A stretch of 64,000 nt of DNA from a virus. Taxonomy: Duplodnaviria > Caudoviricetes. The notes below the pieces were generated by a model, which saw only the letters and a list, made by a program, of their open reading frames with translations, was not told the origin of the DNA and searched no databases. How positions within the stretch are numbered: position 1 is the stretch's first letter; each line of letters opens with the position of its first letter. The translations under genes and the position numbers were made by a program. The DNA is taken from IMG/VR virus record IMGVR_UViG_3300001528_000534, positions 64,001 through 128,000 of that record; one strand, 5' to 3'. This document shows, piece by piece, positions 1 through 64,000 of this stretch.

Positions 1-3000
1 GCTACTGCAGGATAGATTGCTGCAAATGTTTTAGAAACGGCATCTGAAAAAGAAAACGCCAAGGCTATGAATGAAAGTGCTTAGGCAGCAGATAATTTAA
101 AGAAAAAAGAAGTTGCTGAAACAGTAGCAACAGAAGGACAAGCTGTTGCAAATAATGTTAATAAGACAGGTAAAATAATAGCTCAAGGTATGTCTAGCAC
201 TCTATCTACTATTTCTTCAATGATAAAAACAGCCATGAGTGCAGTTCCTGCTCAAGTAAAAGTAATATTAGTTGTTATTGCAGCAGCAGTAGCTACAATA
301 ACAACAATATATTCAGAATTTGAAAAAAGGGCGGAAGCTGCGAAGAAGAGAGCAGAGGAAGCTGCTGAGACCGCAAAAGCGCTTGGAGAAGCTTATGAAG
401 AAACTACAGAAAAATTAAATAATTTAAATGATGCTTTAGATTCTTATAAAGATTTTTAGAATGACTTAAAAGAATTGACTAAAGGAACCCAAGAGTGGAA
501 TAAAGCACTTGAAGATTCTAATAAACAAGTTTTAGAATTAATAGAAAATTATCCTTCTATTGCTGGTTAGGTAAAGAGAGGACAAAGCGGAGAATTAATT
601 CTTGATGAAGAAGCTCAAAATAAAATAGTTAAAGAGTAGGAATAGGAAGTTGCTTCTTCTTATAGAGCAAAACTTGCCGCAGATATTCAAGAAATATAGA
701 CTTAGGAAATTGCTACTAAAGTAGAGTTATAGCAAGAGATTTTTGGAGAAGTAAAGCTTCTTCCCCTTGATTGGGACTTTTCTGCGGATGATTTAGATAA
801 AATCGTTACTGCAGTAGAAGCAAATGGAAGTCAAGTGTTAGATGCTTCTAATGCTGCTAGTAGAGAAATTTTATCTTTAGCTGGTTTTACAGATGAACAA
901 ATTAATGCTATTTAGAATAATTCAGATAAAATTTTATCCGCAGTTGATTCTATTGATAACAATAAAATAGCAGTAGATTTATTAACTCAAGAAATTAGTA
1001 AAATTGATTTTGGAGAGAACGAAGGATATAGCAATTTAACAGAAGAAGAAAAAATTTTAGTTGATAAATTAGCAAATGCGGATGATAAATATAAGGCAGT
1101 AAATGGCGAATCGAATATTGAAGTTCTTGGAAGAACAGAAGGATTAGAGGATTCTCCAGCAATTTTAGCTAAGTTTTTTAAAGAAGCTTTAGAAGAATAG
1201 GGATATGAAGTAAAAGGCAGCAGTATAAAAAAAGATGGAGAAAAATTATCTTCATCAGAAAGAGATGACTTATTAGAACAATTAGCAGGAGAATATGTAT
1301 CTAAAAAATCTTAGGAAGAAAGACAATTAAATGCTGATACTTATATTTAGGCAGCTTAGGCTTTTTCTAAGAGTAATCCTTTATTGGCTTCTTATTTTGC
1401 AACAGGAAATCTTTCTAATACGCCATTTTCTTAGAATTCATAGGCATTAGAAGATGCTAACGAATATCTAAGAGGAGTCCGAGCCCTTGCTGCTAACTAT
1501 CAAAGTAAAAGAAATTATTTACTTTATGATAAAGAAAATTATCTCCGTGAACAAACATACAATGATTATTATGTTAATGAATAGAACATAAATAAATTAG
1601 CAGAGATTTATTAGAAACTCGAAGCAAGTGATGCAAAAGATAAAGATTTAATGTTATAGTTTGCGGCTGTTGCCAAAGGCGTTGATGTTAGTGAACTAAC
1701 AGATGAAGATAAGGTTAGGGTAAATTGGTCTCTTATTTCCGATTCATTTTCAGCGTTAGGGGCAGACAATTATAACATAGGAGCAGAATAGAGATTAGCT
1801 GAATATTCTGCTTTATCAGGTGTTGAATTAGATTCAGATGCTATTGTTGCTTCTATCCAAGAATTTTAGAATGAAGTAGATAACGCTCTAAAAGGTGGAC
1901 AAGAATTAAAAACTGCAGGTACTTCTCAATATGTTGACGAGCAGTATCAAAAGGCTTTAGATGTTTTTGGAGAAGGAAATCTTACTCTTGAACAATAGAA
2001 TTAGCTATAGGATAAAATTCAAAGTATTTGGGATGAAAGCTCTAATGAAGGCGTAGAAGCTTTAATGGCTTCTTTAGATACAGAAGACTTTGAAGCGGCA
2101 ATTAATTTTACTTATAATGGTAATGAAAATGCGGCAGAAGGATTATCTGAAGACCTTCAATAGAAATTAAAAGATTTAAAGGTATCAGAAGATGATTTTA
2201 TTAACCAAAAAGATTTCTTTGAATTTTAGGGTAAAAGTTATTCTGATGATGCTATTGCTAATTACCTTGCCGCACAAAAAGAATTAAATAAGATTTAGAC
2301 TGAATATTAGAAGAATCTTAAAGCAATGGCAAAAGATTCTTCTGTACCAGAGTTCTTTGAGAATTTAAAGAAGGATACTTCTGAATTTACTAGCGAAGAA
2401 ACAGAGTCATTCTTAAATATTAAAAAAGCAATGAGTGAATTGTTTGGACGCGATGTAAGTACAGAATGGGTACAAAATCATTTAGATTTAATTAAAGAGT
2501 TTGCGGTTGAAGGTAAAAATGTCACTGCAGAGTTAAATGCTGCAAAATTAGAGATGGACGAAATAACATAGGAAGATATGGAAGCTTCTTTAGCTGCGTC
2601 CGCGAGAACTAATTAGGTTAAATTAGGCGCTCGAGCTAGTGAGTATTTCATGTCAGACGTTGAAGAAGTTGCGGCATCTCTTGAATTTAATCAAGAATAG
2701 ACTAAAGCTTTGTTCCAAAAGTATGGATACTATTGGGATGAAAGTCAAAATTCTTATATATATTTAGGAAAAATAGAAGATAAATATACTTATAATGCTT
2801 CTGATAATCCGGAAGATAAAAAGTATACTATTGAAGATTTATAGAAATTACTTGGAAAAGAAACTTTCTCAGTAGAAGAAGCAGAGTCTTTAGGGTTTGT
2901 TTACCATACGGGGAACCGTGGAGAAGCGCCTTATTATACAAGAGAAACTTTATTTAGTGATTCTTTGAAAGTAGAAGTTTCAGAGGAAAATACTGAAACA

Positions 3001-62887: not shown

Positions 62888-64000
62888 TGGCTACTACGAC
62901 TGATTATCTTAATAAGCTTATTGAGCAGAAGAATACACTCGCTGATAATCTTGTTACTAAAGGTATTGAAGCAACTCATGAAGAGAGCTTTAAAACACTC
63001 ATTCCTAAAATTTTAAATATCACAAGCAGTGGAGAGGGAACTGAAAAATATTATATTTATAATGACGGTATTGAGATGAATAATCATACTATGACTATTT
63101 ATCATAAACATAGTTCTTCAAAGAAAGCTGCAAATTGGATATATCTATATGGTTATTATATGTCTGATTTATCAAGTGATAAAATAATTAATAATGGATA
63201 TTCAAAACTTTGTATCACATTAATGTCTGATTCTACAGAATTTTCATATACTCCAAAATACTTAAAAGTTTTATGTACAGATGAAGGTGGAGCTACTCTT
63301 ACCGGAAATGATTATTCATCAAATGGAGATATTTTAAAATCTATGGATATTATATCATATCCTGATACAACATCTGCAGGTTCAACTTATAAAATAGATA
63401 TTTCTAATTTTTCAGAATTTTATCTTCATTTTTAGAATGTAAATACTGATACATATATTTTAAGCATTTGGCTTGAAAAAGAAGAAGAGTATTAGAATAA
63501 TATGATTTTTGATAATTGGGAACATGTAAGTGGAAACAATGGATATAGTTTTGATAAAGATGGCTGGACTGGACCTTTTACTGCAAGTAATTATATAGGA
63601 ATAAATAAATTATTTACTTATACAGAGTCTTTTGAAATTATGGTCAATTTTATTTTAGATTCTATACCAAATAAAACTAATGTGTTAATAGGATGTAGTG
63701 TAAGTAATGTGTATACGAAATCTCCAACTGTAGAACTTCAACCAACAAAAATATGGGCTGGTTTATCATATGAAGGAAAAACGTGGGATAAAAGCGTAAG
63801 CACTAATATAGAGTGGGAAATCAATAAAGAATATTATATAAAATATAGCTATAATGCGGATTCTAAAATTTTAAAATTAGAAATGTCTCGTAATGGAATA
63901 ACTTGGGAAGTTTTAGCAAGCGCCGCAGATATCGAAATAGGATATTAGTGTATCGATTCTGAATATTTTGAGTTAGGCGGCATAGCACGCTCAGGTAGTC
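62887..64000 (+). CDS. Putative tail fibre/receptor-binding protein (3'-truncated, code 15)
   Basis: N-terminal KNTLADNLVTKGIEATHEESFKTLIPKILNI module; ORFs 62887 and 63502 share a frame via TAG; beta-rich, lectin-like C-terminal part. Confidence 0.65.

Follow-up and report, generated by a model that had tools for sequence, protein, structure and literature searches.

Reassignment of the TAG stop codon to glutamine (Gln), in conjunction with a phage-encoded suppressor tRNA carrying the anticodon CUA (tRNA(CUA)), is an established trait of several gut phages, crAss-like and Lak phages among them, and the gut phages described by Borges et al. as using genetic code 15 comprise crAss-like, Lak, Garnet, Amethyst and Topaz phages (10.1101/2021.08.26.457843). 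Metaproteomic proof of code 15 has been obtained for crAss-like phages (PMC9523058). A further described example is phAss-1 (OQ749652), a siphovirus-like phage with a genome of 136 kb, a tape measure protein of 3,149 aa and, reportedly, three suppressor genes. Babkin et al. (2023, PMC10607447) placed this phage in the vicinity of Enterococcus phage EF1 and of an Enterocloster phage. The present analysis concerns the TAG codons of a 64,000-nucleotide stretch of viral DNA (designated here as the window; G+C content of 29.6%), which represents bases 64001-128000 of one 139,691-bp contig (IMG/VR record IMGVR_UViG_3300001528_000534), the first 69 bases of which are repeated at the contig end. Based on codon comparisons, the genome of this phage very probably reads TAG as Gln (NCBI table 15), with TAA and TGA as its sole terminators.

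In common with the code-15 gut phages, the window phage combines TAG-to-Gln reassignment with a phage tRNA(CUA) and the retention of TAA and TGA as stop codons, while its TAG codons are concentrated in structural and late genes and variable in replication genes. It differs from these phages in its lineage, being of the siphovirus type, with a genome of 140 kb, a polymerase of the DnaE type and a tape measure ORF that comprises 3,459 codons, and in encoding neither release factor 2 (RF2) nor an aminoacyl-tRNA synthetase. Reading of TAG as Gln by means of a phage tRNA(CUA) was thus already known, and the window phage adds another lineage to this group.

The window phage also resembles phAss-1 in possessing a tape measure protein of >3,000 aa, many tRNAs, NrdG, TAG read as Gln, a tRNA(CUA) and no dedicated synthetase. 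The RecJ-like proteins of the two phages are 30% identical, and their tail proteins match only in fragments. Compared with the three suppressors reported for phAss-1, the window phage encodes one; the phAss-1 suppressor recovered here shows no relationship to the Gln-like suppressor of the window phage and possesses a D stem of 4 bp, though it too carries a U1-A72 pair. The polymerase and RecJ of the window phage exhibited 31-36% identity to those of SPbeta, Geobacillus E3 and Enterococcus phages, and its nearest cultured relatives (~31-36% protein identity) infect Bacillota. The window phage is assigned to the same broad assemblage as phAss-1, Enterococcus phage EF1 and Enterocloster phages. 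Membership of the proposed genus Phassvirus, for which nucleotide identity of roughly 80% or higher and synteny relative to phAss-1, BK046881 and BK025033 would be expected, was considered and rejected, as a megablast search with 21 kb of sequence matched nothing in the phage collection and RecJ identity amounted to 30%. A scan of IMG/VR with a single protein likewise yielded no close relative, and the relatives discussed below were recovered by an alignment-based scan.

In-frame TAG codons and the residues aligned to them

Stop-to-stop open reading frames (ORFs) of at least 300 aa in the window increased from 8 (12,888 nt) under code 11 to 20 (41,754 nt) when TAG was read as a sense codon, compared with 9 (14,106 nt) and 10 (15,699 nt), that is, almost no gain, when TGA or TAA, respectively, was read as sense in control readings. 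The number of nucleotides in long ORFs therefore triples with TAG alone as a sense codon and with no other stop codon reassigned. This gain, specific to TAG, is in agreement with the earlier note on this DNA, which had described ORF fragments falling into single frames broken only by TAG and had proposed a comparison of coding density under codes 11 and 15. The presence of in-frame TAG codons in ORFs of the window is confirmed: approximately 236 were counted in the window and at least 449 in the complete genome. The 53 ORFs that lie wholly inside the window contain 160 of these codons, while 19 of the 53 are devoid of TAG.

The five examples that had been put forward in that note were all recovered as TAG codons, at positions 30401-30403 and 30215-30217 in the gene for the N-terminal part of NrdD (29342..31048, minus strand; five TAGs), 27867-27869 in the gene for the NrdG activase (27456..27968, minus strand; three TAGs), 25550-25552 in an HNH homing endonuclease gene (25376..26221, minus strand; YDGE*HF) and 7510-7512 in the tape measure ORF (LH*KELVLN). 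The latter ORF, whose product matches phrog_4211 (tape measure), enters the window with its 3' 2,606 codons (1..7821, plus strand; 73 TAGs), which specify the C-terminus; the complete ORF extends across genome positions 61442-71821 and comprises 3,459 codons, 95 of which are TAG.

With TAG read as sense, the genome is represented by 144 non-overlapping ORFs (88% coverage, ~39,600 codons), in which 449 in-frame TAG codons are found beside 727 CAA and 230 CAG codons, TAG thereby accounting for 32% of Gln codons. All 144 ORFs end in TAA (112) or TGA (32), as the earlier note had stated for the genes traced in it, an outcome that follows from the way in which ORFs were defined. The in-frame count of TAA and TGA codons was zero, compared with frequencies of 12-65 per 1,000 codons in the two alternative frames of the genome; TAG frequencies by frame were 11, 28 and 15 per 1,000 codons.

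The claim that TAG occupies positions at which Gln is expected was examined by tabulating the residues or codons of homologues at TAG sites, as had also been proposed. For NrdD, homologues were searched with TAG masked as X, and the 120 database homologues obtained include intein-bearing or fused NrdD proteins. At residues 216 and 278 (TAG at 30401-30403 and 30215-30217, respectively), Gln was present in 120 of 120 homologues as well as in two solved NrdD structures (PDB 9d3x and phage T4 NrdD). Residue 551 is Gln in 56 of the 120 homologues, representing the commonest residue at this position, while residue 19 is variable.

Replication genes were compared at the codon level with 80 IMG/VR loci that are related to the window phage through the RecJ-like gene (45-51% identity). 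Such codon tests are independent of database protein calls because the codons were read directly from DNA. Opposite TAG, CAA (412) and CAG (148) made up 34% of 1,666 alignment cells, compared with a Gln background of 2.9%, and all invariant columns at TAG sites were occupied by CAA or CAG. These codons were found in 63 of 63 relatives at residue 144 of the DnaB-like helicase (41006..42556, minus strand; three TAGs, including 42125-42127 for this residue), in 79 of 79 at residue 584 of the RecJ-like exonuclease (38067..39869, minus strand; ten TAGs, including 38118-38120) and in 60 of 60 at residue 321 of the Sak4-like annealing protein (43145..44158, minus strand; six TAGs, including 43196-43198). 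At further sites they were found in 51 of 60 (Sak4 residue 302), 50 of 58 (Sak4 residue 66), 10 of 13 (NrdG residue 34, TAG at 27867-27869) and 8 of 8 relatives (NrdG residue 158). Across 30 TAG sites in replication genes, the log-odds score was +47.7 bits for Gln and -65 bits for glutamate (Glu). The RecJ-like protein P0122 (93% protein identity) carries Gln at all ten RecJ TAG sites, residues that may stem from a code-15 gene call and that were not counted as independent evidence.

Late genes were compared with those of relatives that have standard-code late genes, the portal genes of which are 63-71% identical to that of the window phage; portal genes were searched in G006-G010, where four of five lack an internal stop and that of G009 contains internal stops, while for the other relatives standard-code status was judged solely by loci of the replication module. 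Across 185 late-gene TAG sites, CAA or CAG occupied 209 of 527 cells, compared with a background of 4.4%, and 34 of the 38 sites at which at least three relatives agree were Gln. When the whole genome was compared with standard-code relatives only (248 TAG sites), Gln scored +215 bits, lysine -288 bits and Glu -319 bits, and 39 of 43 conserved columns at TAG were Gln and one was Glu; many other TAG sites fall in variable columns. The strong enrichment of Gln in replication and late genes alike, together with the NrdD residues and the genome-wide score, supports the interpretation of TAG as Gln that had been offered from the window sequence; neither of the outcomes that the earlier note had named as refuting it, a lack of Gln enrichment at TAG columns or an unchanged coding density, was observed. 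In addition, comparison with a relative that itself reads TAG as Gln (G011:C2; 275 sites) revealed 61 shared TAG codons and 59 that are exchanged for CAA or CAG.

An explanation in which the TAG codons are not decoded at all, being located in decayed, mis-assembled, error-containing or intron-interrupted genes, gains some plausibility from the NrdD, DnaE-type polymerase and topoisomerase II genes, which are really split by homing endonuclease genes. It is refuted by the codon statistics, as 449 in-frame TAG codons are set against zero in-frame TAA or TGA codons, and it is further at odds with the position of TAG sites on conserved Gln columns, with the 61 TAG sites common to a relative that is only 55% identical in protein, and with the presence of a matching tRNA(CUA) gene. 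Nor does the assembly favour it: the source genome is circularly assembled, of the siphovirus type, with direct terminal repeats and a CheckV completeness of 100%, and contigs that are ~94% identical to it are present in pig-gut runs from four studies. These contigs differ from the window at 649 positions; among 40 of these differences that were inspected, none fell on a TAG site, and the contigs accordingly speak neither for nor against an exchange of TAG with CAA or CAG. The probability left to undecoded TAG codons is practically negligible, and decoding of TAG as Gln is retained for the sections that follow.

Suppressor tRNA and related phages with other codes

ARAGORN identified 19 tRNAs in the genome, the genes for which form an array extending across the ends of the contig, and among which a single tRNA(CUA) is encoded at genome positions 1695-1767 (complement), outside the window and 65 bases from the gene for tRNA-Gln(UUG) (1554-1629). 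No tRNA gene was found by ARAGORN in the 64-kb window, and none with a UUA or UCA anticodon was found in the genome. Release-factor domains (PF00472 and PF03462) gave no match anywhere in the genome, with positive controls, and the GlnRS/GluRS catalytic domain (PF00749) gave no match in the genome, with positive control genomes. The earlier statement that the window contains neither a suppressor tRNA nor a release factor, and that the machinery must be located elsewhere, thus holds; of the components for which a scan of the full genome had been proposed, one tRNA(CUA) was found, while no RF2 or GlnRS gene was.

The tRNA(CUA) has a body with U1-A72, G2-C71 and G3-C70 pairs, a 3-bp D stem and a D arm of GCC/GG. 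It shares U1-A72, A73 and the 3-bp D stem with tRNA-Gln(UUG) of the same genome, and the anticodon arms of the two are identical across positions 28-42 save for two changes in the anticodon. When 132 other tRNAs of six related genomes were compared with it, the four nearest were all tRNA-Gln (72-73% identity). These resemblances identify the phage tRNA(CUA), as judged from its sequence, as a derivative of tRNA-Gln.

A host enzyme must charge this tRNA because the phage genome contains no GlnRS gene, and tRNA(CUA) would thus be loaded with Gln by that enzyme and then compete with host release factor 1 (RF1) at UAG. Two charging routes can be envisaged. By the first, host GlnRS would act directly, as on supE (glnV) of Escherichia coli, an amber suppressor in the form of a tRNA-Gln(CUA) that inserts Gln at UAG. 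The phage tRNA(CUA) is similar to supE in that a tRNA-Gln body has acquired a CUA anticodon and delivers, by the present reading, Gln at UAG. However, supE is chromosomal, suppresses weakly and operates in a cell in which UAG is still a stop codon, whereas UAG represents a third of the Gln codons of the window phage, and the discriminator base is A73 in the phage suppressor, as in its own tRNA-Gln, compared with G73 in E. coli tRNA-Gln. By the second route, a non-discriminating GluRS would act first, followed by GatCAB, which accepts tRNAs with U1-A72; the features by which GatCAB selects its tRNAs are known to be this pair and the D loop (PMC2811023).

The relatives recovered here do not all read TAG in the same manner. 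In 25 related loci (among L007-L066), TAG is positioned on Glu columns, Glu being the best residue for every locus, and the columns concerned include invariant ones (RecJ residue 296, Glu in 64 of 64; RecJ residue 326, 79 of 79; primase residue 260, 72 of 72). The complete genomes G001 and G002 (L116-L130) also read TAG as Glu, with scores for Glu of +109 and +63 bits, respectively, and the readers of TAG as Glu comprise G001-G005 plus about 20 other loci. Genome G050 (146,105 bp; L171-L178, locus L064) reads TAG as tryptophan (Trp; 125 sites, +192 bits, 25 of 28 conserved columns), and its tRNA(CUA) (L168:1473-1565, 93 nt) is tRNA-Trp-like, is located beside tRNA-Trp(CCA) and has an extra arm or insert. 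Five further loci (L061, L067, L068, L072 and L074) carry in-frame TGA at conserved Trp columns, with scores for Trp of up to +29 bits, indicative of TGA read as Trp. In genome G042 (138,670 bp; L179-L185), the ORF fraction rises from 0.50 to 0.81 with TAG as sense; Gln scores +21 bits, an ambiguous result in that conserved columns are divided between Gln (four) and tyrosine (four), and the tRNA(CUA) (L169:1443-1539) is 97 nt in length, with a long insert and an A1xC72 mismatch. The Glu- and Trp-reading relatives resemble the window phage in genome size and in the order of their genes; they share its RecJ-like, portal and DnaE modules and likewise encode an array of tRNAs and a suppressor of their own. 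They differ from it in the meaning of TAG (Glu or Trp) or in reading TGA as Trp.

The relative that reads TAG as Gln, G011:C2 (CAZWLD010000002.1; L160-L167), is a circular sequence of 142,490 bp with ~55% protein identity to the window phage and a Gln score of +170 bits (43 of 49 conserved columns). It was binned in a metagenome-assembled genome (MAG) labelled as uncultured Anaeroplasmatales, in which a GlnRS-type domain but no GatB match was found; its presence there represents either a binning artefact or a hint of the host. In a RecJ tree it groups with the window phage (SH-like approximate likelihood ratio test, 97), but two long branches meet at this point. The lineage of Gln readers and the principal clade of Glu readers form separate branches of one well-supported clade that also includes standard-code members.

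In view of these relatives, the possibility that the window phage reads TAG as Glu or as a Glu/Gln mixture, its suppressor being glutamylated by a non-discriminating GluRS and partly amidated, deserves consideration, all the more as Glu-tRNA would be an obligatory intermediate if the host uses GluRS and GatCAB (PMC2811023). Both the strongly negative genome-wide score for Glu and the single Glu column among 43, as given above, contradict it, as does the suppressor itself: the tRNA-Gln body of the window phage has U1-A72, whereas the suppressors of the Glu readers (all four distinct) belong to another family, characterised by a C1-G72 or G1-C72 pair and by a D loop of the Glu type. A Glu reading of the window phage is accordingly regarded as highly improbable, and Gln remains the residue assigned to its TAG codons.

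A pattern search for suppressors in 48 related records recovered only three because most of these records are fragments, and the sample of suppressors available for comparison is small (three distinct Gln and four Glu suppressors) and composed of sequences that are related to one another. Within it, U1-A72 is present in all three Gln readers examined, i.e. the window phage, G011:C2 and phAss-1. Overall identity between the suppressors of G011:C2 (Gln) and G003 (Glu) amounts to 79%, with matches at 40 of the first 43 bases, a common anticodon arm and identical acceptor pairs 2-6; the two differ at pair 1-72 (U-A vs C-G, respectively) and at pair 7-66 (G-C vs a G.A mismatch). It is conceivable, with rather less than even confidence, that in this phage family the suppressor tRNA has been replaced or retuned several times and sets the meaning of TAG, and that its first acceptor pair decides between Gln and Glu. 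If so, a single swap of the 1-72 pair could convert all TAG codons of a phage from Gln to Glu or back, throughout its proteome, by way of recognition by host GatCAB or GlnRS. The suppressors of G011:C2 and G003 thus provide a nearly matched tRNA pair for studying how the identity elements of a suppressor determine what a reassigned codon specifies, while the window phage and G011:C2 represent natural Gln-reading controls for the Glu and Trp codes within the family.

For annotation, table 15 is correct for the window phage, and table 11 fragments about two thirds of its long genes, including the tape measure ORF and the portal and sigma factor genes. Table 15 is unsafe for its relatives because TAG is read as Glu in many and as Trp in at least one of them, and TGA as Trp in others; the amino acid at a reassigned codon must consequently be inferred genome by genome.

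Uneven use of TAG and timing of expression

TAG codons are unevenly distributed among 90 genes (chi-square 286.7, df 89, p ~1e-22). Their share of Gln codons is 44% in the late plus-strand block (genome 42406-87912), 17% in the replication block of the window and 11% in the early block, and their frequency per 1,000 codons is 20.6 in the late block and 2.9 in the early block, in which 19 of 23 ORFs lack TAG. The two parts of the DnaE-type polymerase, the Dda-like helicase, the ligase, the topoisomerase pieces and the RNA ligase are specified by TAG-free genes, while RecJ (10), Sak4 (6), NrdD (5+2), NrdG (3), DnaB (3) and primase (2) contain TAG, as do most homing endonuclease genes (up to 13). 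The portal gene contains 19 TAGs. The late block opens with a sigma factor gene (phrog_5767; L003:2406-3596, genome 42406-43599, outside the window), which contains six TAGs; this late sigma factor would itself depend on the suppressor tRNA. A gene for a 394-codon virion structural protein (L003:18482-19663, genome 58482-59666) is free of TAG amid the TAG-rich late block, which may reflect avoidance of this codon in a very highly expressed gene.

Recoding as a delay or lock on late expression is a published idea (preprint 10.1101/2021.08.26.457843). In the window phage, full-length late proteins would be made only after phage tRNA(CUA) has accumulated, because TAG provides 44% of late Gln codons and little in early genes, and the suppressor could thereby serve a timing or lock function. 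The presence of TAG in DnaB and primase implies that the suppressor is therefore needed before late transcription, and this timing model for late genes is held loosely.

The same distribution bears on an alternative in which TAG has a dual role, terminating some genes or early translation and specifying Gln only later or in part, as a regulated, leaky stop codon. Host RF1 is presumably present, and the phage has no release-factor gene or known RF1 inhibitor; the near-avoidance of TAG in early genes and a slight excess of TAG in the last tenth of ORFs, several codons being located 0-3 codons before TAA or TGA, would also be consistent with such a role. Conversely, TAG codons are spread roughly evenly along ORFs, no ORF requires TAG as its terminator, and a 3,459-codon ORF with 95 TAGs would need near-complete suppression for any full-length product to be formed. 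TAG codons near the C-terminus, such as those for DnaB residue 513 and RecJ residue 594, are located opposite sense codons in relatives. A leaky stop is on balance considered unlikely, and TAG as a regular Gln codon is preferred.

A number of observations nonetheless weigh against this picture. Four of the 43 conserved TAG columns are not Gln, and residue 167 of NrdD (TAG at 30548-30550), within the motif GIIHxHDIDY, is phenylalanine in 108 of 120 homologues and isoleucine in related phages. The last tenth of ORFs contains 60 TAGs, compared with a mean of 46, and this slight excess, together with the codons positioned just ahead of terminal TAA or TGA, may indicate that TAG keeps a leftover terminator role. 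The essential replication genes with TAG (three in DnaB, two in primase and ten in RecJ) would require suppression prior to or in the course of replication and weaken a strict late-only timing. With regard to charging, the two MAGs that contain related sequence disagree, one having a GlnRS-type domain and no GatB match and the other the reverse, and the binning of a phage contig together with a MAG offers no more than a hint of the host. Finally, there was no RNA run among the runs listed as holding the window sequence.

As a separate observation on NrdD, Gln at residue 167 would be an unusual substitution beside conserved residues.

Gene map of the window and its interrupted genes

Downstream of the tape measure ORF, a 1,645-codon gene for a late protein (7916..12853, plus strand) contains 34 in-frame TAGs and, past its first start codon, 33 TAG compared with 20 CAA or CAG codons. 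Its product, for which PHROG and Pfam searches were without match, is homologous (33%) to a protein of the standard-code relative G006 and is probably a tail protein. Three large tail genes follow on the plus strand (13588-16218, 16200-18107 and 18665-20299), with 14, 7 and 10 TAGs, respectively, and matches to phrog_1887 (tail protein) and phrog_32343; between the last two of these lies a 180-codon ORF (18108-18650, plus strand; six TAGs) with no family match. Pfam searches of ten late proteins gave no match, no lysis genes were identified with Pfam or PHROGs searches, and PHROGs searches of block A were uninformative.

The genes described below are located on the minus strand. A GIY-YIG homing endonuclease gene (45955..46797) has 13 TAGs, the densest outside the late block, while the region 47794..56292, encompassing an NAD-dependent ligase, the topoisomerase II pieces and two GIY-YIG genes, contains no TAG in ~2,500 codons.

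Three essential genes are interrupted. NrdD (27980-31048) is represented by an N-terminal part, an HNH gene (28599-29309) and a C-terminal part, with five and two TAGs in its N- and C-terminal parts, respectively. The TAG-free gene for the DnaE-type DNA polymerase (31664-36773) consists of two parts (31664-34342 and 35481-36773), between which a GIY-YIG endonuclease gene (34441-35301) with three TAGs is located. The gene for the large subunit of topoisomerase II (49812-56292) is fragmented, and GIY-YIG genes (54097-54906 and 52579-53298) are located between its pieces. Rfam searches at gathering thresholds returned nothing in the window, and hence no recognised group I intron at the split genes; the interruptions of NrdD, DnaE-type polymerase and topoisomerase II represent either introns or genuinely split genes.

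The TAG-free gene for the Dda-like helicase (36818-37939, minus strand) is located between the polymerase and RecJ-like genes. Across window positions 36800-38135, the pig-gut contigs exhibited numerous joints and loose ends (36816-36818 and 38027-38062), as well as a spike in depth at 37869-38135, which suggests that a repeated or mobile intergenic element flanks the helicase gene.

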